A DNA stretch of 64,000 nucleotides from Bacilli bacterium (lineage in GTDB: Bacteria; Bacillota_I; Bacilli_A; ML615J-28; CAG-313), in NCBI GenBank assembly GCA_017463365.1, contig JAFTPH010000052.1, forward strand, positions 3,276 through 67,275, written 5' to 3'. Below the pieces are notes generated by a model. That model saw nothing but the letters and a program-made list of their open reading frames with translations. It was not told where the DNA came from and did no database searches. Positions 5,776 through 61,596 of this stretch are shown in pieces. Each line of letters opens with the position of its first letter. Position 1 is the first letter of the stretch. Made by a program: the position numbers and the translations under genes.

Positions 5776-5964
5776 ATTCATCATATCCTTTTCTACTATT
5801 AGTATACTACAAAATTTATAAAATATCAATAAATTAGGAAAATAATTATTGATTTAGGAAAATTTTGCATAATTTTACGAAAATATTTTTCAAAAAACAA
5901 TTCATTTTTAATAATATTATTTTACTTATTCTTTAATTCGTATAAACACATTTTTTAATGGTAA

Positions 5965-6008: not shown

Positions 6009-9000
6009 TTATTCTTTAGACTCTTCTTCTTCTCCAAAGTATAAATCATATAAATCATCTGTTGCTTGTTCTTTTGTTTCTTCATCATCAGGGTTTCCTG
6101 CAAGAGCATTAATAATATTATTTAATTTATTAAAGAATGAATTGAAGAAGTCGAATAATTTATCGAAGAAGTCTTCGAATACTTCAAAGATTGTCTTAGT
6201 AGGAGTTCTCTTAACACCAACGTGTCCACATACATCACAGTGACTTTCAGCTTTACCTGGTTCATCAGTTGTTGCTTCTACTGTGTCTTCCCAATGTGTA
6301 TATGTATGAGGGATAGTAGCGATATCACGTTGTCCAGCTTCTCCACAACGTTCACATGTACTTACTTCAATACCAACTTCATAACATTTTGGATTTTTTA
6401 CCTTATTCCATTCTACGAATAAGTGACCAGTTGCTTCAGTTGTACGAGTTTCGAAGTGATCACATCCTGAACAATATCTTGTTTCGATACCATCAGTTAT
6501 ACAAGTGTGAGCTTGTTCAACTTGCCAATCACCATAAGTATGTCCTGAGAAATCAGTGTAGTAATCACAAATTGTACATTCTTGCCAGTGGTAATTATCA
6601 GTTTGTTTTGCAACTAAATTGTGTTTTAAGTTAAGAACTGCTTCACCTGTGAATAAATCATAATTTTGTTTATAACCAATTACAATATATTCATATCTAC
6701 CAGCTTCTACTGGAGAATCACCATTAACAGCAATTGAGTTAAGTGGTAAGTCAGATAAGATTTCTTCTACTTTGTCAATTAATTCGTTATCCGCAAATAA
6801 TTGTAAAATATGAATTAATTTAACTAGTGGTGATAATTGACCTTGAATATCGAAGAATTCATCTTTAACTCCCCAACTTTCAGGTAAGATAACATTTACA
6901 GTATGAGTGTCATTACCTAATACTAAAATGATTTCTTCTAATCCGTATGGGTTGTTAATTACAACATTATGAGGTTCTCCATCATGGAATAATTCTACAT
7001 CTTCTAAAGACATACCATGTTCTTCAGCATAAATAGTCATTGTTCCAACTGCTAAACCATATTGTAATAATTCAGGGTTATTGTAGATTGCAGTAACAGT
7101 ATAGAATCCAACATTTGTAGGAAGTTCTGTACTACTATATACTTCACCATTACTCATTACACCATTGTAATAGCATGTTAAATATTCATTTGGTAAAATA
7201 TCTCCATTATCAGCATACGCTTCAGGAATTAAGCCTTGTGGCATACCATTATATTTAAATTCTGCATCATCATTTACAAATTCAACAGAAATTGTATCAA
7301 TAACAACTGTGTATACACGAACAATTGGAATTGCATATAACATTTCATTACCTAAATCACGAGTATAAGCAATTTGTGTATAAGCACCAAGTTCGCTAAT
7401 TGGTTGATCAGTTACATATTGTTCACCATTGATATCAATACCAATATATAATGTAGCAAGTTTAGAAGTTGCCGCTTCATATAATTCTTGAGATAATCCA
7501 TCTTTCTTAACGTGAGCACCTAAGATAGTTGGATCTTGCATGATTGATGCTTTTGTTACCATAAAGTTTTCAACTTCAACGTTGAATCCAAGTTCAACTT
7601 TTGTAGCATCAGGTATAATAGTGATATATCCTAAACCGAAGGCTGTTTCATAGTTTTGTGATGTTGTTACAGCACCAATTAAGTATAATCCAGCTTCTTC
7701 TAGATAAATATCTTTACCCATTGTTAACATAATTTCAATACCAGTTGTACTTGAAATTTTTTCTAATTGTTCAAGCAGTTTGATTGTACTATCTAATGCA
7801 TCACTACTTAAGCTAACACCAACTAAGTTTTCAAGCATTTCTAATGCATCTTTAATACCTTCGATAGCCGCTTTTAATTCAGAAATACTCATTTGTTCAT
7901 TGAATCCAAGGTTATCTAAGATTGTTTGAACATATGGACGAACTGATTCTGGAACAGAATCTAAATCGATTAAATTAGGAATATTTAAGTAACTCATCAT
8001 ACCGGCACTTGCGTTTAATCCAATAGCAAGTTCAATTACTTCTAATTCAGGTTCAGTTGTAATACGTTCAGAAATGTTAACACCAGTACCTTTAATATCT
8101 TTATAATTGAATGATCCAGATACAACATTTACTTTAGCAGGAGCTTTTTCAACTGTAATTGTACAAGTTAATGTAGCAGGTTGATAATCATATTCAGAAC
8201 CAGCATAAGATAATGTAATTGTATGATCTCCAGCATTTAAAGTTTCAATTTGAGCATCGCTTAATGAGAAGCGAATTTCAGCTTTATCGATAGCCACCTT
8301 AATACCATTTTCATTAATAATATAAGCACCTAAGTAACCATCTAATAATAAGTTATATACATCTTCAGCTGTATAGTTGTTATATACTACTGAGATAGAT
8401 GTTGCAGCATCGATATATGTCTTAGTACGACCATCGACAACTGTAAATTCTACACGTTTACTACATGGAGCATATTCATCATCTCCAGCATAGTTAACTA
8501 AAATTGTATAAGTTTGACCGAATGTTGTAATTGATGAAGCTTGGATTTCAGTTGTTCCACGATATAATGCATAAGTAAATTCTTTATTTAATACAACACC
8601 ATTTGTTTCATCATATAATCCAATACCTAAATCTTCAACAATTTGGTCAAGTGATAATACATCACCTTTTACGAATGGAATTTCAAGCACATCATTATTA
8701 GTTACTTTAGTAACATTACGTCCGTCACTAACCATGAATTCTACTGTTGCTTCACTTCCAAGATGTGTACTTGTTGCCGGGAATTTAACAGTAATAGTAT
8801 AAACACCAGCTTCAGTAATTTGTGTAATTTCTGTATTTGTCGCAGAACTTAAGCTATTTAATGTTACATTTGCAGAAACATAACCATAGTCTACGATAGA
8901 TGCAGTGTTACCTTTAATAGATACTGATTCAAACACTAAGTTGAATACTTCTTCTTTAGTAACATAGTCAGTAGGTAATACTTGAGTTACAACATCTGAT

Positions 9001-12000
9001 TTTAAGTTAACTTGTGTTTCAGGACGAGCATCAACAATAGTTAATTTAACTGTAACATCTGATGGTTGACTTGAATTATTACCTTTAAATTTAATAATAA
9101 CATTATATTCACCAACAGAATCAATTCCTTTATAATCAATAGTTTTACCTAAAATTGATTCCATATAATAAATATTATTACCTAAGTTAGCGAAGTCTAA
9201 GATACTTCCTTTATAGATAGCTGAAATATAGAATTCAGCATCATCAATTCTGTTGCCTTTTGCATCATATGCAACAGGGTTAAATGCTTTTAACACTTTT
9301 TCAAGTGTTTCAAAATCTGAACCAATTGTACTTAAATCGTCTTCATAAATAGTTACTTCTTCACATTCAGTCTCAGATTCACCACGCATATCTTTAATTT
9401 CAAATGTGATTGTTGTATCACATTTTTGATATTCTGCAGCACCTGGACAACTAATATGAATAGTGTATTTACCAACGTTGTCTAATGGTTCATATGCTTG
9501 AGCCCCATATTCTTTACCTAAAAGAGTTAATCCTTTAGAGTAATAAATTTCAGGATCAGCTAAATCAATTCTTACAATTAAATCAATTTCAAATGTACCT
9601 TGATATGAAACATTGATGCCTTCAAATGTTTCTACTTGTACAGTAGGATTTAAGTAAGCAAGTAATGATTCTAAACTATCAAATTTAACAGGAATTTGAC
9701 CGAAATTATATGCATCATAACTTAAGTTAGGAACATAAATTTCACCAGATGGACGACCATCACTTACTGTGAATGTCATTTCTGTTTCAAAACCTTTAAC
9801 TGTGTCAGTACCAGCATATACAAATGTGATTGTATAATCTGTGGCTTCATCTAATTCTTTATAAGAAACATTGATTGGAATATTATATCCACCAATTTCT
9901 ACTCCTTGTTGAATGTAGTAGAATCCAAGTTTCTTTAATCCTTCTTCTGTTAAATCACTTAAATTTAAATCTTCCCCTAAACTTCCTAAAATATCAGATA
10001 AGTCTAATCCTTTTCTAATACTTGTGATTGTAAGTTCAGAACTATAATATTCTCCGTTTCCAATTTTAACCATCGGATTAATGTATTGAGTTAAAATATC
10101 TAATGATGAGAATAAAGTTTCACTATCTGTTAACTTACTTTCAACATATGTATCATATTCCCATACAAGAGTTGCATCAACACGACCATCGACAACTGTT
10201 AACTTAGCAGTGTATTCACCAGGTTGATATGTATTATCTCCAGCAAAACTTACTGTAACAGTGTATTCACCAAATTGATCTAACCCATTAAAATCTATTA
10301 CTTTATTACTACCAATAATTGGAAGATCGTATCCATTAGGATTATAATAAGCTTTTGTTCCATTAAATACACTAACGATAGATAATCCAGATACACCATT
10401 TACACCATTAACATTAGGAGTTAAGGCAGCTAGTACTTTATCTAAAGTATCAAATCTAGTAGCAATATTTAATCTATTGTCAAATGAAATCATCGGATCA
10501 GTAAATGTTACTGTTGATTCTGCACGAGTATCAGTAACAGTAAATGTAGCTGTTGCTTTTGATCCTTGATGAGTTGCGGTTTCAATAAATTCTAATTCAA
10601 TTGTATATGTTCCAGCTTTATTTAGTGGCACATAATCTTTTACAGGAACAGACACATTACCTAATGTTGTACTAATTGTGTGTTTACCATTTGAGTAGTA
10701 AATATTATCTCTTGATAGAATAGTTCCAGTAAGTGATAATTCACCTTGATAAATAACATTAATAACAACATTACCATCTACACTAATATTATTTTGATTT
10801 TTAATAACACACTCTAAGGCTTCTAATACTTTATCAAGAGTATTGTATTTAGCTTCAAGTTCTAGGAAATTATTAGAGTCAACATTTGGATCTATCCAAT
10901 CAATTGATGTAGTCGGACGAGTATCTTTAATTTCAATTACGGCAGTACCAGTACATCCTAATGTTGTATCTGTTGCTTCATATTCGAATGTAACAGTGTA
11001 TAAACCAGGTTTAACAATAGGGTCTTTGTATGCCCCACCAGAAATAATTTCAGTAATATCATATTCTTCATAATATGACACTTCATTTTCGTCAACAATC
11101 GATTTAATCTTAACATTTGGTGAAGAAATTGTTTGATCACCTATAATTAACGAAATTGAGAATTTCTTTAATACATTGTCTTTTAATTTAAAATCATTTG
11201 CAAGTGTCGTATGATTACTATACTCTAATTCAACATCTGGAATAGATAATTTAGTTGTTGAACGACCATCTTGTAAACTTAAAATTGCTGTAACAGTTTG
11301 TGCAGGTTTATGAGTATTGTCACCTTCAAAGCTTAGGGTAATTACATAATTTCCTACAGCATTAACTGTCTTATCAGCTGTTGCTTTAATTACTAATCCA
11401 TCAGCTTTTGTAATTTGATTGTTAATTACATTTTCAATATAAGCATTAACAGCTGTAACTAATTTTTCTGATGAATTATATTTAATATTAATTGCACTAC
11501 TATTAATATTTGGTTCATTAACAACGATTGGTGTATTAGAAACATTGATTCTTGTATCAATACGATTATCGTTAATTGTTAATTGAATAGTATTTGTAAT
11601 ACCTTTATATGTTTCAGATTCTGTTAATCTATAAGTAATGTTATAAACACCATTTCCTTTATTAATTTTTGTAATTCCACTAATACTGAAATGTGAATCA
11701 TTAATTTCAGAAATAGATGTAATAGCACCACCATTTAATTCAATATTTGATTTAATAATTGCTTTTACTTTACTAATACTATCAACTATTGAGAAATCGT
11801 CTACTGTAAGTTCAATATCATCAATTGAAATTTCAGTACGAGTATCATCAATTGTAAAGCGAATTCGTTTTGTGCATTCTTTATATAGATCAGTTGCATT
11901 ATATTTAACATAAATATCATATGTTCCAGCTAATCTAACTTGTTCTACTGAACTATCATTTAATAAAATTTCAGTAATTTCTACAGTTGCACCAGCAACA

Positions 12001-15000
12001 TCTTTAACAGCAATATTTAATTCACTAATAATATTAAATACCTTATTAAAGTTATCAGTTGCTAAACCTTTTGGAGTATAAGTAATTTCAGTAGCAATAC
12101 GGTTGTCATTAACAACAACTTTTACTGTTGCATTACTTGTACCATAAGAACTAGTTGCTTCAACTGCGAAAGCAATAGTGTATGTTCCAGCAGCATTGAT
12201 TGTACAATCTGTACCATTAATGTATGAATTATTTTCAGCATCAACAATACTTTGAACAACGATTGTTGGATTTTCAACTACACTTTCACCAATTAAAACT
12301 TTAACATTTAATTGATTAATAATTTCAGCAAGTGTATCAATTGTACCAAAGTCAGTAACATTTAATGTAACTGTATTTGCTACATCAATTGTACATGGAG
12401 TACGTCCATCAGTAATAGTGATTGTCGCATGACTTGTACATTCATTATGAGTATCATCTTCAACATATTTAAATGTTACTTTGTATGTAGCAATATTTGA
12501 AATAAATGTGTTATAGTCCCCACCACTATAAATAACTTCTTTTACATTTCCATCTCTGTCTAGTTCTTCAATTCTTGTAATAACAACATTTGGTGAAACA
12601 ATTGTTTCAGTTCCATCGTTAACTACAACATTGAATTTAGCTAAAACACTTTCAAGAGTCTTGAAGTTTTCAGCAATTGTAGCTGAAGTGCTTGCGTCAA
12701 ATGGAACATTTTCAACAGTCATAGTTGTTGTTTTACGACCATTTGTTAATTCAATTTTTTTATAAACTTCAACTGATGGTTTATGTGTCATATCTCCATT
12801 GAATTTTAATTCAATGTAATAAGTTCCAATACTATTAATTGTTTCATATCTTGTAACAACAATGTTAGATGCATCTAAGGCTGTACCAGTTGTAACGATA
12901 GTTGCATTTAAAACATTTCTAATTTCTGAATCTTCATCATATTTACCAGCGATTGCTGAATAATCAGGTTCAGCGAATGAATAATCTTTTGCTTCAATGC
13001 TTGTTTCAGAACGGGTATCATTAACTGTTAATGTAACTTTAGCTGTTGTTGCTTTATAAGTTTCTGACTCAGCAACTGTAACTTTTAATTCATAAGTTCC
13101 ATCATATCCTACAGGAATACTTGTAATTCCATTACCTATTGTAACAGTAACTTTATTTGCATCAATAGTTACTTCTTGACCGTTTGCATTAGCAGTTAAA
13201 TTGTTTAATACAAGAGTTTTAATTTGAGCAATAATGTCTTTACCATAATCAGGGACATTAATACTTAATTCGCTAGGAATAGTTGGTTCAGGACGAGCAT
13301 CAACAAGTGTTAATGTCGCAGTTTGAGTACATGGTTTATGTGTATTATCTCCAGCAAATTTGAATGTAATTGTATGACTACCATAATCAGTAATCGCATC
13401 AATTAATTCACCATCGATATCAGAAACTGAAACAGTTCCAGCTACCATAGCATTTCCATTAACAACAATTCCAGCTTTAAATAAGTTTAGAATTGCAGCT
13501 TTATCAAAAGTTCTTCCAATACTTGCCCAATTTGTGTTGTAAATATCAACTGGTTCGATTGGAGCAACTGTCATTGTACTTGCTTGTCTTTGATCAGTTA
13601 ATTTAAGGTTAACTGTAACTTCTTTAACTGTAACTTTATAAGATTTTGTATCTTCTAAATGTAATCTGATTGTATATGTACTAATTTGATCAAACTTTAC
13701 AAATCCTTTTCCAGGAATATCAATTTTATAACTTCCTATTGGATAATAAGCATCACTATCTGCATAGTAAACACCTAAGTCATCAACATCATCTATGCTA
13801 TTTATTGTTCCAACATAGATTGCAGAAATTCTTGGTTTAATAGATAGATCTTTAACTCCACCTACACTTACGTATGCACCTAATTCTTCTAACACTTTAT
13901 CTAAGCTATTAATTGAATATAAATCTTCATTTAAATTATCAACACCAACGCTCGTATTAGGAACACTAATTACAGCAGTAGGACGTACATCTATAATAGT
14001 TAATGTTGTTTCTAATGTTTTTGCATTACATGTATCACTGTCTTCAACAAATACAGTAACTGTGTATTCACCAGCACTTGTAATACCATTATTTCCACCA
14101 TTTACTTTAATTGTATAAGTTTGTTTTGATAAATCAAGGATATTTCCTTTTTCATCTTTAATATAATTTTTTATTAACTCTAATACTTCAAGTGCAGTAT
14201 CAGTTGTATTGAAATCACTAACTTCTTTAGAGATATTTTCATCAATTACTGGATTGATACGTTTATCTTCTAAAGTTAATGTTACTGATTTAGGTTCTGA
14301 TTTATAATCATGAGTATCATCATCAATATATTCAATAGTTACTGTGTATACTCCAACTTTAGTTAATGCAGTTAATTCATTCTTACCTGCGTCAGTAATA
14401 GTTACTTTAACATTACCATTGTTAACTAATGTCATATAGTTTTGAGCAGTACCATCAAATTTAACACTTAAATTGATTGTTTTTAAGATTTCTTCTAAAG
14501 TGTCAAATTGACCTGGAATTTGTGATAAATCAGCAAATCCAATACCAGGATTAGACACATTATTTGCGTCAATCGTTACAACTGAACGCTTATCTTTAAT
14601 ATCGAATGAAACTACTAATTCAGCTTTGTGATTTGTATTTGACTCAGGATATGTTACTTTAATTGAATAGTTACCTACTTTTTCAATAACATTTCCAGTT
14701 TCATTATAATAATTTTTATCACCATCACTAACTGTATAAGTTAATTTACCTAATCTGTTAGCTTCATTACCATTTACTAATACTTTTAATCCAATGATTT
14801 TAAATAGATCATCAATAGTAGTAAATTTAGATGAAATTGCATCTTTACTAATATTTGAAACAGGATATTCATTTACTGTATTTTGAAGAACAATAACTTC
14901 ACGTCCATCAATAACATTAATTGTTACTTCTTTGTTTTCTGCAGCAAGATGAGTATCTGTTGCTGCGTAAGATAAAACAACTTTATAAGTTCCAACTTTA

Positions 15001-18000
15001 GTGAATGGAATAAATTCTTTACCAGCTTGGTAATATAATACAGTAGCTCTTGTATCAGCATTATCATCAAAATAGATATAACTGATTGTAGGTTTAAATT
15101 TACCATTTACATTTGCTTCTAATAAAGTGATAATAGCATCTAATGAACTAAATTTATCATCAATTAAATTTAAATCAGCAAATGTTTCTGTAATACTATT
15201 AGCATTAATTGTAGTTGCTGCACGATTATCAGTTACTTCAAAGTTAACTACACATTGATTTACAGGTTTATTTGTATCATCTGTTGGATATGTTAATGTA
15301 ATTGTATATACTCCAAGAGCATCAATTGTATTAACAATATTTCCTGCGTTATCTGTAATTTTAATTTCAACTTTTGCTAAACGAGTATTATCAGCATTTC
15401 CATTAACTTTTACACTTACACCTAATTGTGCTAATAAATCAGCTTCATTTGCTAAAGCAGCTTTAATTGCATCAGCACTAATATCTGTTGCTTCATATTC
15501 AGTATTTGTATATGTAATTTCAATTTCTTCACGTGCATCATTAACTACTAATGTAATTTCTTGACTACATGGAGCACTATCATTATCACCAGCGAAACTT
15601 AATACTACTGTATATTCTCCTGCTTTGTTAATTGTAACTCCATTTTTAACTGTTGCAGTAAGAGGACCAGCAGTAAATTTATATTCAACTTCATCATTAA
15701 TTGCATTAACAATTTCTTCACTAGTATCTAAACCAGTTTCTAAACCGCTTAATGTAGGCACATCAATAGTTACTCTTGTAGGGAAAGCAATTGAAGTTGC
15801 AGCACGCTCAATTTTGAATGTGAATGTTAATGCACTTGCTTGGTTAGTTTCACTACCTTGAATAGAAATAGTTACTGTATAAGTTCCGTCATTTACAAGG
15901 TTAAGTGTTGAATCATTATAATATTCATTACCTTCAGCATCTACGATACTTGAGATAGCAACTAAATTTGTATTTACAACATTTCCATCAGCATAAACTG
16001 CAGGAATAATTTCTTTAATTGCAGCTAATGTAGCATCATTTAATTTAGCATATACTTTTTCAGTATAAGTATCTAAAGTAACAACTGGACGGTTATCGAC
16101 AATTGTAAATGTTGCAATTGCAAATGATTGCTTAATAGTATTTGTTTCATATACAAAAGTAATTTGATAAATACCTACAGCATCAATTGCGTTCTTAGTT
16201 TGCCAATCATCACTTTTATTTACTTTAAATTTGATTTCACCAAATTTAATATTTGCATAATCAATAGAAGTAACTAATTGACCATTCACTGTTAATTCAA
16301 CATTTCCAATTATATCTAATACTTCTTTTGGAGTATCAAATAAATCATTAATAGTTGATGAACTAGTAGATGGAGTATTATATGAACCAGTACCATTCAT
16401 ACTTAAACTTGAAGATAAACGAGCATCAACAAGTTTAAATCCTAATGTTTGTGTTAATGGTTTATATGTATCGCTTCCTTCAATCTTGATTGTTACACTA
16501 TATGTAGTCTCAAATTCAACATTTTCAGGATCTGCATAAGTATCAACTGTTGCATTAGCTAAATTTACTTCTAATGTATTTAAGATATTATCTTTAGCTA
16601 ATAAAGTATCAATTGTGCTAATATCTGTAATATCAATTTCTGAATCATAAGTTACTGTATATACTGAACGAGTATCTTTAATCTTTAAAGTTACTGTTTG
16701 TTCAGGTAATCCGAAATATTTATCATTTTCGTTTACTTTAACTTTTACAGTATATGTAGCATCACCATAAGGAATCTTATCAGTGGCGTTATAATTTGTA
16801 ACCGATACAGTAATATCGCTATCTAATATAGTTACACCATTAGCAATTGTTAACTTATCAATTATTAATTTTCTGAATGTTAAATCAGCAAAATCACTAA
16901 CTTCAACTTCAATTGAAGAATTAATTGCAGGTCTTGGTCTAACATCTGAAATTTTTAATGTTATGGTAACTGGAGTTGCAGGTTTATGAGTTTCATCACC
17001 CTTACAACTTAATGCAATTGTATAAGTTCCTACAGCACCAATTCCTGTTTCAGTTTCTTCTGTTATTGTATTACCATTAACTGTAATTACTGAAGCTGCA
17101 CCATTTAATTTAAATTGCACTCCATTTGCTACAAGAAGATCAACTAATTCAGCTAATGTGTCATATGCAGAAGTACGTTCTAATTTAGAACTAAATTCTT
17201 TTGTAATTTCATTTGTTGGAACATAGAAACCAGTTTCAGTACGTCCATCATTAAGTGTGAATATTACAGTTGATTCTCCAGATCTATATTTACTATTACC
17301 ATCGTAATCAATTGTAATTTTATATTGCCCAGCTGAAGTTATTTTAGTTACTTCAGTAGTTTTTAAACTTGCATTTGAAATAGTTTCTAATGCTTCATAT
17401 TGTCCACTTGTTGAATTATATTTTTCAATAATTAATGAAAGTCCACCAATTGTTTCAGCAAGTAATCCGTATTTTGTATTTTGAATAGCACTTAATAATC
17501 CTGTTGCTCCAATAGTAGTTAATAAAGTTTCTAACTTACCATATCCAGCAAGCTCAGTTAAACTTATAAATGCACATGTTGTATCTTTAACATTAAAAAC
17601 ATAAACTTCACGAGCATCAACTACTTCAAATTGAATTGTTCCAGCAGTTGCTTTATAAGTTTCAGTATCTAAAACTACAAATGCAATATTATATATTCCA
17701 GTTGTAGTAATTGGTTTATAACTTACTGGATTTTCTGAATCAGTATTATATAAGCATTCATTATTAGAATTTGTAATACTTAAAATACTAAAAGTAGTTA
17801 CATGCATTTTATCATTTAAAAGCATCGTTTTAATTTCATCTAAAGTATCGATTTTACTGTAATCACTTACAATGTCATATAAATTAAATTTATAATTAGT
17901 AAAACTTAATTCTTCACGAGCATCAGTTACATTTAATGTAACTTCAGTTTCTGCCATTGCTTTATAAGTTTCATTTTCTGCAACTGTAACTTTAATAACA

Positions 18001-20315
18001 TAATTTTTAGTTCCATATGGAATTTTTCCATCTGTAACACCTGTAATTGTTACATCGCTTTCAGCAACTTTAACATCTAATTTGCTAATTAAATATTCTT
18101 TAAATGTAACAACACCTTTATAATCAGTAATTGTTTCATTAAATGTAGTAGCAGTAATATTTGGAGTTGTACGACTATCTGTTAATGTAGCAGATACATA
18201 ACAGTTAGAATAAACACCAGATAAGTATACTCTTACACTTTCAGAATATGTTTGATTTTTGCTCCAATCAGTACCGAATCTATCAAACGAACTTCCATCA
18301 GTTATTACAACCCATTTATCTTGACCAGCATGATTTTCTTCAAATTGGATTGTAACATTATTAATGTTAAATACATCTTTTGTAGAATCCTTTAATACAT
18401 CATAAATCTTTTGTTTTAATTTATCACCAGTAATACTTGTGATATTATAATAACTAATTTTTGTTGACGCAAAACCAAATCCAGCGTTTGCTATTGGTGT
18501 TGCTTCAACGCTTAAATTATATGTTGTTTTAGTACTAGCAGTAGTGAATGTTCCTGTCCATGTAGCACCATTCCAAGAACCGTTAATTGCTACACCATCT
18601 AATAATATTTTACTAGCTTCAAGATAGTATTGTGAAGAAGGAGTAATTGTAATTGTAACATCTTGACCAGCAGGCAATGTTGCTCCACTAGTCTCTTTAA
18701 CTTCTTCATTTACTGTAGCTGTAACAGTTGCATTAGATACAGTCCAATTTAATGTTGAATCAGTATCTTGTCTTATCACCAATGTAACTGTTTTACTTTC
18801 AGCTGCAAGATAATCAATATTTTCAGCATAATTAAATTTAATTGTGTAATCACCAAAATCAGAAATTGCAGCACCAGATAGATTTGTATATTCACTTCCA
18901 TTAATAGTTACACTACTAAAAGATTTTCCATTATCAATATTAGCATTAAACATATTAATAATATCTTGAAGTTTAAAATCTTGGCTTTCTTCAAATTCTT
19001 TTTCTATTTTATCTGGAGAAGCAGAAATTGTAGGTTTAGATCTTTTTTCAGTTAATTTTGTTTCAGGAATAACACATTTACCATATTTACCAGATAAATA
19101 CACCTTTACATTTTCATATGTTTGTATTTTATCTTCACCAACTACAGTATTAAGTAAGAATTTTGATTCATTTCCAGATAAATCAATCCATTGGTTTCCT
19201 AAATAATACTCCCAATAAATTTCTATTTTTCTATAATCTAACTTTTCATCTTTACCTTCATTTAGAGCATCCATTATTCTATTTGCAATTGGATATTCAG
19301 ATGAAGTAGGACTAAATAAACTAATTTGAGTAGTATCAAACTTAAACTCATGTTTAGTCGCATTAACCGTTAATATATAATCTGTAGCAGTTGAAGTAAT
19401 TGTATAAGATCCAGTCCATACACCTTCACTTGACCATCCGCCATCTTTATTATACGTTGCACCAGGTAAACTAATATTAGTTGATGGATCAACATAATAA
19501 TCAGTTGATGGTGTAAGTCTAATATAAATCTTTGTCCCTAAAGGTAAAGATGTAGTTGATGTTAAAGCAGAAAAACTTCCAGAATCACCAATTTTTATTT
19601 CAGCAGTAACATTATTGAGAGCTGGCTTAATAGTTGATTCTTGTGTATATGTAATATTTAATTCTACATTACTTTTTAAAGTATTCGAAATGCTATATAC
19701 ACCATTAACGGCTTCAACAGCAACTGTATTATTTTCAACAACTAATTTATGATTACTTAAAAGATTTGATGATGGAGTATAAGTAATAGTTGTTCCATTA
19801 ATTGAAAGCGAATCATAATTATCTGCTGTGTACTCTTTAACGGTATTTGAGTCAACATAAAGGGTTTCTAACAGAGCATTTTGACCACCAATTGAAATAG
19901 TAACATCTAATATATATTCATATACATCAATTGTAACACTTTTCCCTGACATAATTGAACATTTTGTAGGTGACCAACTTGTACCTAAACCACTAAAAGA
20001 ATATATTTGAATAACATCATTCTCATTGAAAGATAATGTATTTCCGGCCCCATTATTTAATGTGCTATAAGTGATTCGTTCAGGGGTCCCACCATTAACA
20101 GAATATCCATAACTACCAGTACTAGCCGAAGAATTACTAAATCCAAATATGCTAACTAAAAGTTCTTTTTCAGTAGTTATACCATTTTTCAAATGAACAA
20201 CTGATCCATCTATCACATACTCTGCCTCTACCTCTACATTAGTAGATGTGAAACCTAGGATAGATACTACAGCAATCATTGCTATAAATAATCTTAATAA
20301 AAATTTTCTATTCAT
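6009..20315 (-). CDS. giant (4768-aa) secreted, repeat-rich surface protein (putative adhesin)
   Basis: Single 14.3 kb ORF. ATG start with an AAGGAGGTG RBS. N-terminal signal peptide MNRKFLLRLFIAMIAVVSILGF. About 35-40 tandem ~100-aa repeats ending in a T-x-T-L-x-V-x-D-x-R hinge, consistent with Ig-like/beta-sandwich modules. An MBG-like segment (…FKYNGMPQG…NVGFYTVTAIYNN…). A C-terminal Cys-rich 39-aa repeat x3, then an F-rich segment, then an acidic tail. No LPXTG. Confidence 0.85.
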   Translation of the reverse strand: MNRKFLLRLFIAMIAVVSILGFTSTNVEVEAEYVIDGSVVHLKNGITTEKELLVSIFGFSNSSASTGSYGYSVNGGTPERITYSTLNNGAGNTLSFNENDVIQIYSFSGLGTSWSPTKCSIMSGKSVTIDVYEYILDVTISIGGQNALLETLYVDSNTVKEYTADNYDSLSINGTTITYTPSSNLLSNHKLVVENNTVAVEAVNGVYSISNTLKSNVELNITYTQESTIKPALNNVTAEIKIGDSGSFSALTSTTSLPLGTKIYIRLTPSTDYYVDPSTNISLPGATYNKDGGWSSEGVWTGSYTITSTATDYILTVNATKHEFKFDTTQISLFSPTSSEYPIANRIMDALNEGKDEKLDYRKIEIYWEYYLGNQWIDLSGNESKFLLNTVVGEDKIQTYENVKVYLSGKYGKCVIPETKLTEKRSKPTISASPDKIEKEFEESQDFKLQDIINMFNANIDNGKSFSSVTINGSEYTNLSGAAISDFGDYTIKFNYAENIDYLAAESKTVTLVIRQDTDSTLNWTVSNATVTATVNEEVKETSGATLPAGQDVTITITPSSQYYLEASKILLDGVAINGSWNGATWTGTFTTASTKTTYNLSVEATPIANAGFGFASTKISYYNITSITGDKLKQKIYDVLKDSTKDVFNINNVTIQFEENHAGQDKWVVITDGSSFDRFGTDWSKNQTYSESVRVYLSGVYSNCYVSATLTDSRTTPNITATTFNETITDYKGVVTFKEYLISKLDVKVAESDVTITGVTDGKIPYGTKNYVIKVTVAENETYKAMAETEVTLNVTDAREELSFTNYKFNLYDIVSDYSKIDTLDEIKTMLLNDKMHVTTFSILSITNSNNECLYNTDSENPVSYKPITTTGIYNIAFVVLDTETYKATAGTIQFEVVDAREVYVFNVKDTTCAFISLTELAGYGKLETLLTTIGATGLLSAIQNTKYGLLAETIGGLSLIIEKYNSTSGQYEALETISNASLKTTEVTKITSAGQYKITIDYDGNSKYRSGESTVIFTLNDGRTETGFYVPTNEITKEFSSKLERTSAYDTLAELVDLLVANGVQFKLNGAASVITVNGNTITEETETGIGAVGTYTIALSCKGDETHKPATPVTITLKISDVRPRPAINSSIEVEVSDFADLTFRKLIIDKLTIANGVTILDSDITVSVTNYNATDKIPYGDATYTVKVKVNENDKYFGLPEQTVTLKIKDTRSVYTVTYDSEIDITDISTIDTLLAKDNILNTLEVNLANATVDTYADPENVEFETTYSVTIKIEGSDTYKPLTQTLGFKLVDARLSSSLSMNGTGSYNTPSTSSSTINDLFDTPKEVLDIIGNVELTVNGQLVTSIDYANIKFGEIKFKVNKSDDWQTKNAIDAVGIYQITFVYETNTIKQSFAIATFTIVDNRPVVTLDTYTEKVYAKLNDATLAAIKEIIPAVYADGNVVNTNLVAISSIVDAEGNEYYNDSTLNLVNDGTYTVTISIQGSETNQASALTFTFKIERAATSIAFPTRVTIDVPTLSGLETGLDTSEEIVNAINDEVEYKFTAGPLTATVKNGVTINKAGEYTVVLSFAGDNDSAPCSQEITLVVNDAREEIEITYTNTEYEATDISADAIKAALANEADLLAQLGVSVKVNGNADNTRLAKVEIKITDNAGNIVNTIDALGVYTITLTYPTDDTNKPVNQCVVNFEVTDNRAATTINANSITETFADLNLIDDKFSSLDAIITLLEANVNGKFKPTISYIYFDDNADTRATVLYYQAGKEFIPFTKVGTYKVVLSYAATDTHLAAENKEVTINVIDGREVIVLQNTVNEYPVSNISKDAISSKFTTIDDLFKIIGLKVLVNGNEANRLGKLTYTVSDGDKNYYNETGNVIEKVGNYSIKVTYPESNTNHKAELVVSFDIKDKRSVVTIDANNVSNPGIGFADLSQIPGQFDTLEEILKTINLSVKFDGTAQNYMTLVNNGNVKVTITDAGKNELTALTKVGVYTVTIEYIDDDTHDYKSEPKSVTLTLEDKRINPVIDENISKEVSDFNTTDTALEVLELIKNYIKDEKGNILDLSKQTYTIKVNGGNNGITSAGEYTVTVFVEDSDTCNAKTLETTLTIIDVRPTAVISVPNTSVGVDNLNEDLYSINSLDKVLEELGAYVSVGGVKDLSIKPRISAIYVGTINSIDDVDDLGVYYADSDAYYPIGSYKIDIPGKGFVKFDQISTYTIRLHLEDTKSYKVTVKEVTVNLKLTDQRQASTMTVAPIEPVDIYNTNWASIGRTFDKAAILNLFKAGIVVNGNAMVAGTVSVSDIDGELIDAITDYGSHTITFKFAGDNTHKPCTQTATLTLVDARPEPTIPSELSINVPDYGKDIIAQIKTLVLNNLTANANGQEVTIDANKVTVTIGNGITSIPVGYDGTYELKVTVAESETYKATTAKVTLTVNDTRSETSIEAKDYSFAEPDYSAIAGKYDEDSEIRNVLNATIVTTGTALDASNIVVTRYETINSIGTYYIELKFNGDMTHKPSVEVYKKIELTNGRKTTTMTVENVPFDASTSATIAENFKTLESVLAKFNVVVNDGTETIVSPNVVITRIEELDRDGNVKEVIYSGGDYNTFISNIATYKVTFKYVEDDTHNECTSHATITITDGRTPCTIDVANTVTLNVTDFGTIDTLAEIINQLNVKVLIGESVVENPTIVVQSIVDAENNSYINGTDCTINAAGTYTIAFAVEATSSYGTSNATVKVVVNDNRIATEITYTPKGLATDNFNKVFNIISELNIAVKDVAGATVEITEILLNDSSVEQVRLAGTYDIYVKYNATDLYKECTKRIRFTIDDTRTEISIDDIELTVDDFSIVDSISKVKAIIKSNIELNGGAITSISEINDSHFSISGITKINKGNGVYNITYRLTESETYKGITNTIQLTINDNRIDTRINVSNTPIVVNEPNINSSAINIKYNSSEKLVTAVNAYIENVINNQITKADGLVIKATADKTVNAVGNYVITLSFEGDNTHKPAQTVTAILSLQDGRSTTKLSIPDVELEYSNHTTLANDFKLKDNVLKKFSISLIIGDQTISSPNVKIKSIVDENEVSYYEEYDITEIISGGAYKDPIVKPGLYTVTFEYEATDTTLGCTGTAVIEIKDTRPTTSIDWIDPNVDSNNFLELEAKYNTLDKVLEALECVIKNQNNISVDGNVVINVIYQGELSLTGTILSRDNIYYSNGKHTISTTLGNVSVPVKDYVPLNKAGTYTIELEFIETATHQGSKATATFTVTDTRAESTVTFTDPMISFDNRLNIATRFDTLDKVLAALTPNVNGVNGVSGLSIVSVFNGTKAYYNPNGYDLPIIGSNKVIDFNGLDQFGEYTVTVSFAGDNTYQPGEYTAKLTVVDGRVDATLVWEYDTYVESKLTDSETLFSSLDILTQYINPMVKIGNGEYYSSELTITSIRKGLDLSDILGSLGEDLNLSDLTEEGLKKLGFYYIQQGVEIGGYNIPINVSYKELDEATDYTITFVYAGTDTVKGFETEMTFTVSDGRPSGEIYVPNLSYDAYNFGQIPVKFDSLESLLAYLNPTVQVETFEGINVSYQGTFEIDLIVRIDLADPEIYYSKGLTLLGKEYGAQAYEPLDNVGKYTIHISCPGAAEYQKCDTTITFEIKDMRGESETECEEVTIYEDDLSTIGSDFETLEKVLKAFNPVAYDAKGNRIDDAEFYISAIYKGSILDFANLGNNIYYMESILGKTIDYKGIDSVGEYNVIIKFKGNNSSQPSDVTVKLTIVDARPETQVNLKSDVVTQVLPTDYVTKEEVFNLVFESVSIKGNTASIVDYGYVSANVTLNSLSSATNTEITQITEAGVYTITVKFPATSTHLGSEATVEFMVSDGRNVTKVTNNDVLEIPFVKGDVLSLDQIVEDLGIGLYDETNGVVLNKEFTYALYRGTTEIQASSITTFGQTYTILVNYAGDDEYAPCSKRVEFTVVDGRTKTYIDAATSISVVYNNYTAEDVYNLLLDGYLGAYIINENGIKVAIDKAEIRFSLSDAQIETLNAGDHTITLSYAGSEYDYQPATLTCTITVEKAPAKVNVVSGSFNYKDIKGTGVNISERITTEPELEVIELAIGLNASAGMMSYLNIPNLIDLDSVPESVRPYVQTILDNLGFNEQMSISELKAAIEGIKDALEMLENLVGVSLSSDALDSTIKLLEQLEKISSTTGIEIMLTMGKDIYLEEAGLYLIGAVTTSQNYETAFGLGYITIIPDATKVELGFNVEVENFMVTKASIMQDPTILGAHVKKDGLSQELYEAATSKLATLYIGIDINGEQYVTDQPISELGAYTQIAYTRDLGNEMLYAIPIVRVYTVVIDTISVEFVNDDAEFKYNGMPQGLIPEAYADNGDILPNEYLTCYYNGVMSNGEVYSSTELPTNVGFYTVTAIYNNPELLQYGLAVGTMTIYAEEHGMSLEDVELFHDGEPHNVVINNPYGLEEIILVLGNDTHTVNVILPESWGVKDEFFDIQGQLSPLVKLIHILQLFADNELIDKVEEILSDLPLNSIAVNGDSPVEAGRYEYIVIGYKQNYDLFTGEAVLNLKHNLVAKQTDNYHWQECTICDYYTDFSGHTYGDWQVEQAHTCITDGIETRYCSGCDHFETRTTEATGHLFVEWNKVKNPKCYEVGIEVSTCERCGEAGQRDIATIPHTYTHWEDTVEATTDEPGKAESHCDVCGHVGVKRTPTKTIFEVFEDFFDKLFDFFNSFFNKLNNIINALAGNPDDEETKEQATDDLYDLYFGEEEESKE

Positions 20316-20379
20316 TTTTAAACACCTCCTTGTTTTTTATTTTTTTGTTTGGTTTAAATTCTATGAGTTCTTCAATCAT
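20308..20379 (-). CDS. candidate 23-codon leader ORF (MIEELIEFKPNKKIKNKEVFKNE) overlapping the start of the giant gene
   Basis: ATG with a GGAGGT RBS 6 nt upstream. Its TAG stop overlaps codons 2-3 of the giant ORF. The RBS of the giant gene lies inside this ORF. Confidence 0.3.
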   Translation of the reverse strand: MIEELIEFKPNKKIKNKEVFKNE

Positions 20380-20821
20380 ATTTTTACCTCCATTTTCTAT
20401 AAAAGTATACTTTTATAAACACATAAAATATACTATTTTTATTTCGAAATACCTATAAAATATACTTCTTTTTGATATTTCAAAATAGTATACTTTTGTA
20501 TATCATACTTATTATATCATTTCAAGATTTTAGATGCAAATGTAAAACTCATCAAATTGCAAAAAATGTCGAAAAAGAAAATGTTAAATTTTATTTTAAT
20601 TAAAATTTAACATTAATTTTAGAAAATTTTTATATAGTTTTTTTGGCAATTTTTTCCTATTTATTTTTTAGTTTTATATAATAAATATTTAAAAATAATT
20701 AGATTGATTATTTTATGGGCAAAACTATAAAATTGCTTGTGATTTATATAATTTAAAAAAGATATTTTTAATTTTTTATGAATTTTATAATAGTACAATT
20801 ATTATTTAATATAGAAAATAA

Positions 20822-21835
20822 TTATTTTATTTTCCAATATCCAGTTTTATCTGAACCTACTCTTTCTATTAGTTTGTTTTCCGCTAAATATTTAATATTT
20901 CTTCTCACTGTCTCTTCTGATTTATTTATTTCTTTTGAAATTAATGCATATGTGATATTTGGATTTTTAACTATAATGTCATAAATTTGTTGTTGGGTTT
21001 TATTTAATTTTACACCCACATTTACACCCACATTTACACCCACATTTTCTTGTGAATTTTGTACTTCTTCTCCAATAATATATGCAAAAGGTATTTTTAC
21101 TTTAATAAAATTATCTAAGAATTCGAATACTTCTTTTCCATATTTATCTACTACTAATGAAACACCATGACCAGTTTGTTCAATAAGTCCAAGTTGAATA
21201 AAAATTCTTGTAAGAACCTCATTAACTGGTTTACTAACTCCACTAAAGAAATCTTGTTTTGTAATACCACTTGCTAATCCACCAGTTGAAACAATTTCTA
21301 GGTGATCATCAAATATATAAACAGCAGGTGGAGTTCCATCCATCCAATCATTATGTAAACAAGCATTATACCAACTTTCTCTAAAAGCATCTGTATCAAA
21401 TAATTTTATATCTTTTCTAATGCCATTTTCAAATATGGTTTTTGTTGTATTGATTACATCAACGCAATAAGCATATGCTTGTTTCATTGAAACAATTAAA
21501 CATTTATATCCATATTCATTTCGATATTTAATATTACTTGCTTTTGTATATCCATCAAATACAACAACTTTTATTGATATATCGTTATCATCTGCCAATA
21601 AATTTGCCTGTAAATTGTACTTATAATCTTTAGTTAATAGTTTTAAATTATTTTCAAATGTTTCATCATTTACTGATAACCCTTTTTCTGTATATAACAT
21701 TTTTAAATACTGAAACTTTAGATTTTGTTCTCTAGCTTCAATATCAATTATTTTAGAATTTCTAGTCATATATTTATTAAAGTAATTTACAATTTGTTCT
21801 TCAGTCATTGATTTAGCAGTTGTACCTATTCTCAT
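20822..21835 (-). CDS. C-terminal part (HATPase_c-like + wHTH) of a second COG2865-type regulator paralog; probably a frameshift-split gene
   Basis: 337 aa homologous to the C-terminal two thirds of the 4336-5775 product (…IVSTGGL…GHGVSLV…). The C-terminal wHTH is NITYALISKEINKSEETVRRNIKYL. It contains a (VGVN)3 insertion encoded by a 12-bp tandem repeat. Confidence 0.5.
   Translation of the reverse strand: MRIGTTAKSMTEEQIVNYFNKYMTRNSKIIDIEAREQNLKFQYLKMLYTEKGLSVNDETFENNLKLLTKDYKYNLQANLLADDNDISIKVVVFDGYTKASNIKYRNEYGYKCLIVSMKQAYAYCVDVINTTKTIFENGIRKDIKLFDTDAFRESWYNACLHNDWMDGTPPAVYIFDDHLEIVSTGGLASGITKQDFFSGVSKPVNEVLTRIFIQLGLIEQTGHGVSLVVDKYGKEVFEFLDNFIKVKIPFAYIIGEEVQNSQENVGVNVGVNVGVKLNKTQQQIYDIIVKNPNITYALISKEINKSEETVRRNIKYLAENKLIERVGSDKTGYWKIK
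21013..21048. repeat. 12-bp tandem repeat CACCCACATTTA x3 inside a coding region (encodes VGVNVGVNVGVK on the minus strand)
   Basis: Read directly. Three in-frame copies, the last with one substitution. Confidence 0.9.
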
Positions 21836-21874
21836 ATAACATCCTAATGCACTTCTGCCATATTTCTTAATATA

Positions 21875-22171
21875 TTATAATGCATTACCTTTTTGTACAT
21901 CTATCTTTATGATCCATTTACCCTCATCAATAAATGCAGATGTAGTTACAAACTCTTGAGGATTAGGAAGTATTTTATCTGTGATTATATCAGATATTTT
22001 CTTCATTGATTCATCTAATTTGTTTGTTACTATTCCTACAATATTTCCATTATTTTCTACACCAATATAAATTGTACCATTATTTGTATTTAAAAAAGCT
22101 ACAATTTCTTTTTCTACTTTCTCATTTAATGTACCTTTTAATTCAATATCATGTGTTTCAGAAAAATTCAT
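21875..22171 (-). CDS. N-terminal Schlafen/AlbA_2 domain fragment of the same split COG2865 paralog
   Basis: 98 aa (…NTNNGTIYIGVENNGNIVGI…) matching the AlbA_2 core. It is separated from the 337-aa ORF by 40 bp in a different frame. Confidence 0.5.
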   Translation of the reverse strand: MNFSETHDIELKGTLNEKVEKEIVAFLNTNNGTIYIGVENNGNIVGIVTNKLDESMKKISDIITDKILPNPQEFVTTSAFIDEGKWIIKIDVQKGNAL

Positions 22172-22679
22172 AGTACACCTTCTTTCCTTTAATACTTAAA
22201 CCGGAAAATAAAAAAACGGAAACTAACTTTATAAAAGTGGCAATTGTTTAAATTGCTTTATTCTTTTATAAAATCAATTTCCGCGTAAAGTCTTTTGCGC
22301 AATCCCGATACCGGTAATCCGGAGTAGCAAATCATCAATATATATATTATCCCAAAAGACTAGATAATATATTTTAAAACTTGACTTTTTACTCTTATAT
22401 TATACCATTTTTTATGTGTTTTGTCTATAGTTTTTTTAGAATTTTTGTTGAGAAAATAATAAGAAATGAACTTTACTTATAAATAAAAAACTGCAAAAAT
22501 GCAGTTTACAATAGAAATTAAACTTCCACGAAGTTTATCCGACATTTTATAAAAATATAAAATCGCTTATTCAAAGCTTTGTGTCTATTAACACACACAT
22601 ATTATAAATTATTTCTAATCATATTACAAATAAAAAGATTAAAATTTTTATAACTTTCTCTTTCTTAGAGCTAATTAAT

Positions 22680-27252: not shown

Positions 27253-27559
27253 CTTTTTCACCTCATGAATATAATTATACCAAAATTAAGCAGTTTTTTA
27301 TATTTTTTTGCATTTTAATATTTTTTAAATGTACAAATAGTTTTTTATTTTTCAGTTATAAAATTATGTTGAAAAAAGTGTATTTTATTGTTGATAAAAT
27401 ACACTTTTTCTAACATATTATTTATGTTTTTTATATTTAAAATAATTACAAAAATTTTTCGGTACTTAAATTAACGTCATTTTTTATAATATAAATTATT
27501 AAGAAAAGCAATATAGACTTTTTGTCTATATTGCTTTTTATTACTTGTTTTTATATTTA

Positions 27560-58564: not shown

Positions 58565-58589
58565 AAAAAAGCCCTAAAGGGCTTTTTTT
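58565..58589. terminator. bidirectional terminator AAGCCC-taaa-GGGCTT with T/A runs
   Basis: Hairpin read directly, 3' of the LRR protein gene. Confidence 0.6.
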
Positions 58590-61371: not shown

Positions 61372-61596
61372 AGTTTAATCTCCTTTCATTATACAAAAGT
61401 GTACTTTTGTAATATAGTTAAATTGTATCATAAATAATGTTTATTTTCAATATATTTGTCAATAAATATTTGCTTTTTTAACTATTTAAATCAATTTATA
61501 AAAGTACACTTTTATAGAATAATTAATATTTATATTCATTTTGCGTTCTAAATAAAAATATGGTATAATATGACTATATTTGATGAGGTGATAAAC

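Follow-up and report, generated by a model that had tools for sequence, protein, structure and literature searches.

A candidate coupled upstream open reading frame follows a recombination-type palindrome in front of a giant gene of a Bacilli bacterium

Cistrons that overlap and are coupled in translation include those of the -4 (ATGA), -1 (TAATG) and -8 (ATGNNTGA) classes. Stop-to-start distances between -8 and +6 nt are associated with coupling by termination and reinitiation, and -8 is the third most common overlap class (PMC10666635; see also PMC6728339). In a second group of described systems, the attenuators and arrest peptides (ermC, cat, trpL, secM/mifM), a short open reading frame (ORF) with its own ribosome-binding site (RBS) stands directly 5' of the regulated gene, whose RBS lies inside or adjoins the short ORF. 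A third group comprises the 5' stabilisers of Firmicutes (the hbs Shine-Dalgarno (SD), the cry3A STAB-SD and the ermC and aprE leaders), which carry a strong SD far upstream of the main start and rely on ribosomes bound there or stalled and on hairpins near the 5' end. The cry3A, ermC and aprE leaders serve as parallels for mRNA stabilisation from the 5' end. One study in B. subtilis reports that RNase J1 is blocked by ribosomes that are starting translation at a strong SD (PMC5737220).

Invertons of gut Bacteroidota and Firmicutes, on which small serine invertases of the Hin/hix type act, have inverted repeats with asymmetric centres around a promoter 5' of a surface gene. A hix-like site is built from an A-tract, two bases and a central dinucleotide. 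The nearest analogue of an inverton that lies in a leader and does not invert a promoter is the cwpV leader switch of C. difficile, which uses a tyrosine recombinase and a terminator, unlike the locus described here. One survey reports that invertons often lie near cell-surface genes and that they seldom occur in Bacillus-like Firmicutes, where the median count per genome is 0 (PMC11892184).

We analysed a window of 64,000 nt from a Bacilli bacterium (contig JAFTPH010000052.1), in which the ORF listing and the sequence place a minus-strand ORF of 23 codons plus TAG at 20379..20308, directly 5' of a giant gene. This leader ORF encodes MIEELIEFKPNKKIKNKEVFKNE, as stated in a preliminary description of the locus, and its own start signal is strong: GGAGG-N7-ATG, with the SD at 20387..20391 (minus strand; 72-76 nt 5' of the giant ATG) and the ATG at 20379..20377. 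The sequence here reads AAAATGGAGGTAAAAATATG ATT GAA and, at its other end, GTG TTT AAA AAT GAA TAG. The TAG, at 20310..20308, straddles giant codons 2 and 3, taking the last base of the former and the first two of the latter, and with the giant ATG at 20315..20313 the stop/start overlap amounts to 8 nt (ATGAATAG). The SD of the giant gene, AAGGAGGTG (20323..20331, minus strand), lies inside the leader ORF, 7 nt before the ATG at 20315. Both the overlap with codons 2-3 and the nesting of the giant RBS, also claimed earlier, are borne out.

GGAGG followed after 4-9 nt by ATG is nearly diagnostic of gene starts in this window. Only 11 such sites occur on its two strands: 8 are gene starts, 2 lie inside uvrA and the remaining one opens the leader ORF. 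A 67-aa ORF at 1293, which bears on this count, is a DUF378 gene. When the 506-nt intergenic region upstream of the leader (15.8% G+C) was shuffled with dinucleotide composition preserved, any GGAGG-N4-9-ATG appeared in 41 of 20,000 shuffles (0.2%) and one followed by 20 or more open codons in 7 of 20,000, frequencies that need a discount for about 50 intergenic regions because the leader ORF was chosen after a scan of the whole window. Because these sites are few in the window and rare in shuffles, the leader ORF exceeds chance expectation.

The same intergenic region had been described as about 500 bp of untranslated sequence, which is wrong in detail. At 20570..20614 (minus strand; repeat I11), an A+T-rich hairpin followed by a U-rich run is predicted by folding (z = -3.1); it is terminator-like and may end the upstream gene of 337 aa. 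The best promoter candidate, P1 (TTTGCA-18-TGaTATAAT, 20511..20540, minus strand), scores 10/12 with an extended -10 in a consensus scan in which promoter-like matches as a whole are at chance level, no commoner than in shuffles. The 5' end predicted from it, near 20504, precedes the leader ATG by about 125 nt. The layout of P1, a -10 box, 10 nt and then TACAAAAGTAYACT, is duplicated at the promoter of a second large surface-protein gene, which encodes a leucine-rich repeat (LRR) protein; this duplication supports P1 as a real promoter. From P1, the whole predicted 5' leader folds at -34.6 kcal/mol (z = -2.9).

Promoter placement also bears on whether the ORF is expressed at all, since the mRNA might begin downstream of 20379, or the frame might be open by chance in A-rich DNA. 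A weak match, TTTATA-17-TATGAT (20403..20375), overlaps the leader start and would initiate transcription inside the leader ORF; in addition to the chance-level frequency of promoter-like matches, the ORF was picked post hoc. The best promoter nevertheless lies upstream and is backed by the paralogous layout, any other intergenic GGAGG-N7-ATG in the window is a gene start, and the shuffle frequency is low. We therefore give little credence to an unexpressed ORF.

The giant gene itself (6009..20315, minus strand) encodes 4768 aa identical to MBQ8293331.1 from a Bacilli bacterium metagenome-assembled genome (MAG). The protein begins with a signal peptide, continues with 33 tandem repeats, each about 95 aa long (aa 425-4058), and then has a Cys-rich C-terminal region. 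It had been called an adhesin, a label that is an assumption: Pfam and NCBIfam gave no match and no family assignment, and there was no orthologue among 1.84 billion representative proteins, nor did the public data searched yield an orthologous locus in which the leader ORF could be compared. The gene is known from one organism, in four assemblies that are all identical.

How does the leader ORF relate to this gene? The 8-nt overlap belongs to the -8 class (ATGNNTAG) and falls inside the -8..+6 termination-reinitiation window, which makes translational coupling plausible on geometry. The upstream cistron has its own start signals, and by consensus prediction the best promoter lies upstream of both ORFs, with no terminator between them. 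The locus differs from typical coupled pairs in that its upstream cistron has 23 codons, lacks a Pfam match and does not encode a partner subunit, and in that the giant gene possesses a very strong, accessible SD of its own. Folding of 20400..20290 gave z = +0.45 (129 of 200 shuffles folded just as well), and the giant SD was mostly unpaired (predicted unpaired probability about 0.7). Because this SD is perfect over 9 nt and predicted to be unstructured, coupling cannot be obligatory if the folding holds, and any dependence of the giant gene on upstream translation would not be structural. Given so strong an RBS at the giant gene, coupling may contribute nothing.

The preliminary description had proposed translational coupling or a leader-peptide regulatory device; coupling stands as plausible, and the regulatory peptide is left without support. 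A sensing peptide would act as in erm, cat or trp, controlling the giant gene through ribosome stalling or attenuation within the leader ORF. What the locus shares with such systems is its overall geometry, in that the short ORF brings its own RBS and encloses that of the next gene. The mutually exclusive RNA structures of an attenuator were absent: no alternative hairpins were predicted over the leader ORF or giant RBS, and a terminator scan found no terminator-like site in 20000..21000. Rfam gave no match at the leader region. Inspection of MIEELIEFKPNKKIKNKEVFKNE revealed neither a run of regulatory codons nor a known arrest motif such as those of the ErmCL, SecM, MifM, TnaC or RAPP kinds. 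Nothing supports a sensing leader peptide, and we regard it as highly improbable.

The locus also resembles the 5' stabilisers. An SD-like GGAGG lies in the 5' leader at a distance from the main start codon, and predicted 5'-proximal hairpins precede it on a very long mRNA. Classical STAB-SDs lack a start codon, whereas here an ATG and a full ORF follow the SD; the hairpins differ too, since DNA palindromes account for them, and these palindromes are found again as recombination-type sites.

Two copies of this palindrome sit between P1 and the leader SD. Site e (TATAAAAGTATACTTTTATA, 20398..20417) is a perfect 20-bp palindrome with core AAAAGTATACTTTT, and the leader SD follows after 6 nt. In RNA, site e is predicted to form a 9-bp hairpin. 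Site b (TACAAAAGTATACTaTTTTG, 20481..20500), a near copy with a 1-nt insertion, begins 10 nt after the P1 -10 box and pairs with an AGTATAT repeat in a long predicted 5'-proximal RNA hairpin (20420..20501, minus strand). With at most one mismatch allowed, the window contains 4 copies of the core where 0.17 would be expected, all of them 5' of the two large surface-protein genes. The core (AAAAGT-AT-ACTTTT) has a hix-like build, and like inverton sites it is paired 5' of surface-protein genes.

At the LRR gene the arrangement is that of an inverton. This sister switch (61392..61516, minus strand) consists of IR-L (TATAAAAGTGTACTTTTATA, 61516..61497) and IR-R (TACAAAAGTACACTTTTGTA, 61411..61392), and the pair AAAAGTGTACTTTT / AAAAGTACACTTTT forms true inverted repeats whose GT/AC centres are asymmetric and lie 105 bp apart. 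It flanks a promoter, TTGAAA-17-TGaTACAAT (61450..61422), directly 5' of the gene for a BspA-type LRR surface protein of 927 aa (58588..61371, minus strand), whose ATG follows IR-R by 20-21 nt. In Clostridia MAGs, the core flanks promoter modules of 108-109 bp that adjoin Resolvase-domain genes (serine recombinases) and genes for signal-peptide proteins of 1300-1950 aa, and these modules are flipped between orthologous loci.

These counterparts speak for a DNA-rearrangement switch, in which a serine recombinase acting at b and e would invert or excise the 83-bp segment between their centres; the change in leader RNA structure would alter expression of the upstream ORF and giant gene, giving phase variation of the giant protein. 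After in silico inversion of b-e, the leader SD was predicted to be unpaired with a probability of 0.25, down from 0.54. Unlike in invertons, however, the promoter lies outside the pair, and no promoter-like match occurs inside b-e in either orientation, nor is a terminator formed with it in either. Site b is imperfect; both sites have symmetric AT centres, with flanks that give no polarity. A six-frame search for catalytic motifs and Pfam annotation of window genes found no recombinase in the 64-kb window, and all four assemblies share one orientation at b and e. We consider such a switch distinctly unlikely at the giant gene.

A further explanation is that the leader SD and ATG are by-products without selected function. 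They would have arrived with a switch cassette, as part of its site-plus-RBS module, or through local duplication of an RBS; the 23 codons would be a stretch that chances to be open, and their translation, if any, would be immaterial. Between site e and the leader ATG lie 18-21 nt, the same spacing as at the true LRR-gene start; the giant gene owns a complete RBS, and the leader peptide lacks a family match. Large genes behind the related Clostridia switches have no consistent upstream ORF, and once an ATG is given, about one sixth of shuffles (7 of 41) open at least 20 codons. Against this, the stop lands precisely in the -8 coupling class and not elsewhere, and apart from layout no sequence homology joins the regions after the sites, in a comparison that covered promoter and site. 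A by-product is rather unlikely, though the likeliest of the rival readings.

With slightly less than even confidence, we favour a real upstream ORF that lies in the 5' leader of the giant-gene mRNA, is translated and coupled, and has no sensing role. The geometry, its non-random character, the lack of attenuator structure and the shared site are results from the sequence, while transcript start, translation, coupling and any stabilisation are inferred. Transcription would most likely start at P1, and the RNA would first fold the hairpins formed by the palindromic sites. Within an open, A-rich stretch, the GGAGG-N7-AUG would then be available for binding by 30S subunits, and the 23 codons would be translated. 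Ribosomes stopping at the UAG that overlaps the giant AUG by 8 nt would be released on a second, very strong RBS, where they could reinitiate. Constitutive effects are likely: coupling that is not obligatory would load ribosomes, and ribosomes would cover the 5' leader of the 14.3-kb mRNA. Nothing ties leader translation to a signal.

Because the leader SD and ATG follow the palindrome at the position of the LRR-gene start, the upstream ORF may represent the output end of a switch cassette of the recombinase type, placed before a gene that already had an RBS. More interesting than the ORF itself is where it starts: right after a palindrome that elsewhere marks invertible promoters of large surface-protein genes.

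The leader ORF, a 23-codon ORF on the minus strand (20308..20379), lies just 5' of the giant gene, which encodes a 4768-aa surface protein. It opens with ATG, encodes the peptide MIEELIEFKPNKKIKNKEVFKNE and is preceded at 7 nt by a GGAGG Shine-Dalgarno (SD) sequence (20391..20387, minus). The giant ORF (20315..6009, 4768 codons) begins 64 nt past the leader ATG, and its own SD, the 9-nt perfect AAGGAGGTG (20331..20323, minus), is within the leader ORF. The leader TAG (20310..20308, minus) overlaps giant codons 2-3, and the two ORFs share 8 nt (ATGAATAG; overlap motif ATGNNTAG). The preliminary description had reported a small ORF with a strong RBS of its own, an enclosed giant-gene RBS and an overlapping stop codon, and all of these are present in the sequence. 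Across both strands of the 64-kb window there are 11 GGAGG-N4-9-ATG sites; eight are gene starts, two fall within uvrA and one is the leader ORF. A 67-aa ORF at 1293 that has one such start is a DUF378 gene. Among 20000 dinucleotide-shuffled versions of the 506-nt intergenic sequence, 41 contained a site of this kind, and in 7 of the 20000 it opened a reading frame of 20 codons or more. The leader start signal is unlikely to be due to chance: with about 50 intergenic regions inspected its occurrence is still improbable, if short of overwhelmingly so.

The giant frame contains a TAA stop eight codons 5' of its ATG, and the protein opens with a canonical signal peptide; therefore the leader ORF is not a missed or mis-split N-terminus of the giant protein, and we rejected both an N-terminal extension and a frameshift fusion. 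A fossil AlbA_2 N-terminus, considered for the likeness of IEFK and EELIE to the paralogues that flank the giant gene, was rejected by a family profile built on the 119 N-terminal sequences that the alignment retained. The leader peptide scored 1.2 bits, which was equalled or beaten by 36% of shuffled sequences and by 6% of random small ORFs. The paralogues themselves are co-oriented AlbA_2/HATPase_c_4/HTH regulators bracketing the giant gene at 20822-22171 and 4336-5829 (both minus); the upstream one is split into ORFs of 98 aa and 337 aa, and the downstream one is intact (479 aa).

The spacer upstream of the leader ORF is 506 nt long with 15.8% G+C. This agrees with the AT-rich region of about 500 bp described previously, but not with its description as a single long untranslated region, since it holds a putative terminator, a candidate promoter, a predicted leader of about 125 nt and the leader SD. 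At 20614..20570 (minus; z = -3.1), an A+T-rich hairpin runs into a U-rich tail and is read as the probable terminator of the upstream 337-aa gene. P1, the best promoter match, is TTTGCA-18-TGaTATAAT (20540..20511, minus; 10/12, extended -10). The predicted leader of ~125 nt folds into a long hairpin (20501..20420, minus) and a short hairpin (20419..20398, minus), with -34.6 kcal/mol for the whole fold (z = -2.9). From the leader SD past the giant start the RNA is predicted to be unstructured (z = +0.45), and the giant SD is predicted to be ~0.7 unpaired.

Rfam searches over 20100..21000 at E-values up to 10 returned sub-threshold chance matches only, and at gathering score the whole window yielded tRNAs only. 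Having no above-threshold match in 20100..21000, we rejected a riboswitch or other known cis-RNA; an attenuator was rejected because the leader ORF has neither structure nor a terminator-like site. Because the RNA between leader SD and giant start is unstructured, with no terminator-like site and no Rfam family, an attenuator or RBS-unmasking device is left without structural basis. The regulatory leader peptide proposed in the preliminary description is unsupported for these same reasons, and a sensing leader peptide, for which we found no structural or motif support, is extremely improbable.

Translational coupling, the other half of that proposal, is reasonable. The leader/giant overlap is of the -8 class, and termination-reinitiation works within a -8 to +6 window and collapses outside it (PMC10666635; PMC6728339). 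Our preferred reading, to which we give slightly less than an even chance, is that the leader ORF is a translated, coupled uORF that acts constitutively and has no sensing role. Transcription from P1 would give a leader with a hairpinned 5' part; 30S subunits would bind the exposed GGAGG-N7-AUG, the 23 codons would be translated and ribosomes would terminate 5 nt beyond the A of the giant AUG. Coupling would supplement direct initiation at the giant gene rather than gate it, because the giant gene has a perfect 9-nt SD in open RNA. A second plausible benefit is that a ribosome-occupied SD behind 5' hairpins would protect the 5' end of the 14.3-kb mRNA. The cry3A STAB-SD, ermC and aprE leaders are 5' stabilizers, and the giant-gene leader may parallel them in such protection. 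For hbs of B. subtilis, 5' protection of the message by a ribosome-occupied SD has been shown (PMC5737220). That the leader ORF is not expressed, which we regard as quite improbable, would fit with a weak promoter-like match overlapping its start.

The hairpins of the leader RNA arise from two DNA palindromes between P1 and the leader SD. Site e, TATAAAAGTATACTTTTATA (20417..20398), is a perfect 20-mer palindrome that ends 6 nt 5' of the leader SD, and site b, TACAAAAGTATACTaTTTTG (20500..20481), has a 1-nt insertion and starts 10 nt past the -10 box. Their centres, both symmetric, are 83 bp apart. With at most one mismatch allowed, the window contains four copies of the 14-nt core AAAAGTATACTTTT, where 0.17 would be expected, and at least four copies were found in none of 100 shuffles. 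Both pairs of AAAAGTRTACTTTT in the window sit 5' of its two large surface-protein genes. At the second of these, the LRR gene (58588-61371, minus), the core copies AAAAGTGTACTTTT (61513..61500, minus) and AAAAGTACACTTTT (61408..61395, minus), each the exact reverse complement of the other, have an asymmetric GT/AC centre. The 20-nt inverted repeats TATAAAAGTGTACTTTTATA and TACAAAAGTACACTTTTGTA (61392-61516, minus), with centres 105 bp apart, flank a promoter, TTGAAA-17-TGaTACAAT, directly 5' of this gene for a 927-aa BspA-type LRR surface protein. Judged from its sequence, 61392-61516 is a compact putative invertible promoter, in the ON orientation in the assembly. Elsewhere in the window, two inverted repeats with half-site-like arms, TATAAAAG-N24-ACTTTTATA (22228-22272, minus) and AAAAAGTGTATTTTAT-N5-ATAAAATACACTTTTT (27373-27409, minus), may be ordinary hairpins or related sites.

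The giant and LRR genes have in common the layout of -10 box, 10 nt and TACAAAAGTAYACT, and at both an ATG begins 21 nt past the end of the downstream site; at the LRR gene this ATG is the gene start and at the giant gene it starts the leader ORF. The equal site-to-ATG distance matches what a site-plus-RBS cassette would leave behind if the leader ORF were its functionless by-product, an explanation that we consider possible if somewhat unlikely.

When 185,579 species genomes were scanned for paired core copies 60-85 nt apart, 65 loci were identified. About 50 of them are 108-109-bp modules in MAGs of Christensenellales and other Clostridia (for example, L027 3836-3944, L018 7400-7508, L051 7658-7766 and L017 3022-3130), and some Christensenellales MAGs have 15 copies or more. 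These modules are built in the order inverted repeat, TTGCAA-17-TATAAT, small hairpin, inverted repeat, and the repeats at their ends run over ~25 nt, extending past the palindromic core. Lachnospiraceae and Roseburia carry single copies with the same 109-bp span and unrelated interiors, and in all three such cases examined a Resolvase-domain gene (196-213 aa) directly adjoins the copy. At orthologous loci the module is found in opposite orientations between unchanged flanks; for L018 and L051, whose left flank is conserved, interior identity is 0.75 when reverse-complemented and 0.60 in the forward comparison. Most neighbours of the Clostridia modules are signal-peptide proteins of 1300-1950 aa with few domains, and in most assembled copies the promoter is directed away from the neighbouring large gene (OFF).

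Module layout, Resolvase neighbours, flipped orthologous copies and large signal-peptide neighbours together mark the Clostridia modules as probable invertible promoters serving genes for large surface proteins; the LRR-gene element in the window has the same build. The motif string of the core was in no paper of the literature searched. Inverton surveys report an association with surface genes, and for Bacillus-like Firmicutes the median number of invertons is given as zero (PMC11892184). The Lactobacillaceae loci L031, L032, L037, L050, L057 and L059 contain a conserved 91-107-nt stretch dense with AGTATACT repeats in both orientations (AAAAGTATACTAATGTAAAAGTATACTAATATACTCTTATACTTTTACATTAGTATACT...), which resembles iterons or the end of a mobile element and is unrelated in build to the Clostridia modules.

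The inverton model covers the giant gene only partly. Unlike in invertible promoters, the giant-gene promoter lies outside the b-e pair; a promoter inside b-e was rejected, as a consensus match is absent both ways round, and no third site was found upstream of the giant-gene promoter. A recombinase was looked for in the 64-kb window and rejected, none being encoded there. A 25-nt inverted repeat (I2; 20286-20310 / 20620-20644) was considered as switch boundaries and set aside as chance, because it is one of 56 A+T-rich pairs within 650 nt. Inverting b-e in silico reduced the unpaired value of the leader SD from 0.54 to 0.25 and altered the predicted fold, with no terminator formed. No recurring uORF was seen behind the related Clostridia switches. 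Sites b and e could represent a switch that has been rearranged or has decayed, or one of the leader type. Sharing of a recombinase-type site speaks for the leader ORF being a component of a live b-e DNA switch, but with no promoter inside b-e we find this distinctly unlikely. We also entertain, as a rather unlikely proposal, a 5'-leader switch operated by a recombinase, with the uORF as its output end. The hix-like sites b and e would then be live, and a small serine recombinase acting in trans would invert or excise the 83-bp leader segment, making the 4768-aa orphan surface protein of this uncultured rumen Bacilli phase-variable, and AAAAGTATACTTTT would denote one inverton family across Clostridia (Christensenellales, Lachnospiraceae) and Bacilli that is dedicated to very large surface proteins.

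The giant protein had previously been called an adhesin. Its signal peptide and 33 tandem repeats of ~95 aa each (aa 425-4058) bear out a secreted repeat protein; the adhesin role itself we only infer. The protein has no Pfam or NCBIfam match, and a model of the repeat (pLDDT 86) bears a weak likeness to bacterial Ig-like, Rib and internalin domains, with a best Foldseek E-value of 0.024 and nothing at <=0.001. The C-terminal 700 aa include repeated Cys/His motifs. An exhaustive HMMER search of 1.84 billion cluster representatives with aa 1-1200 returned only the giant protein itself and a weak match to P0002, a distant relative of 2717 aa, 29% identical within the repeats, from a high-G+C organism; sequence upstream of the P0002 gene is high-G+C and uninformative. 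The 90% cluster of the giant protein is a singleton (MBQ8293331.1, 'Bacilli bacterium' MAG). Homology searches with aa 1-500 and aa 4040-4560 gave zero matches, negatives that are weak because the search missed even the giant protein itself, which is in the collection. N-terminal peptide scans of GTDB genomes and JGI metagenomes found no relative, and a degenerate pattern of leader SD plus MIEELIEF had 0 matches in metagenomes. None of these searches yielded a locus with which the leader ORF could be compared, and by them the giant protein appears to be essentially an orphan.

Four public assemblies contain the giant gene; they are identical across the region and all have one orientation. The sole differences between assemblies are at window positions 22305..22350 (L003, another copy of the locus, versus the window), where four substitutions and one indel, five positions in all, fall together in a patch of locally high G+C content upstream of the 98-aa AlbA_2 ORF. 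At L072, a locus of a relative in another sample, an AlbA_2 gene 81% identical to the downstream paralogue is not accompanied by a giant gene, a sign that the latter may be an insertion specific to its lineage.

Taken alone, the leader ORF is another candidate uORF of bacteria, of a known kind and modest interest; its -8 overlap is of the textbook type, and it would serve chiefly as a test case for ribosome loading and 5' protection of a 14-kb mRNA. The recombinase-type palindromes around it are a lead worth following. In the window, each of the two large surface-protein genes has the 14-bp palindrome in its 5' region, and the palindrome also marks ~50 Clostridia MAG promoter modules adjoining giant secreted proteins or serine recombinases. 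If the sites are live, they would provide a signature that is compact and simple to search for, marking phase-variable giant surface proteins of gut and rumen Firmicutes, and this signature would extend to a Bacilli lineage, in which invertons have been reported as rare.
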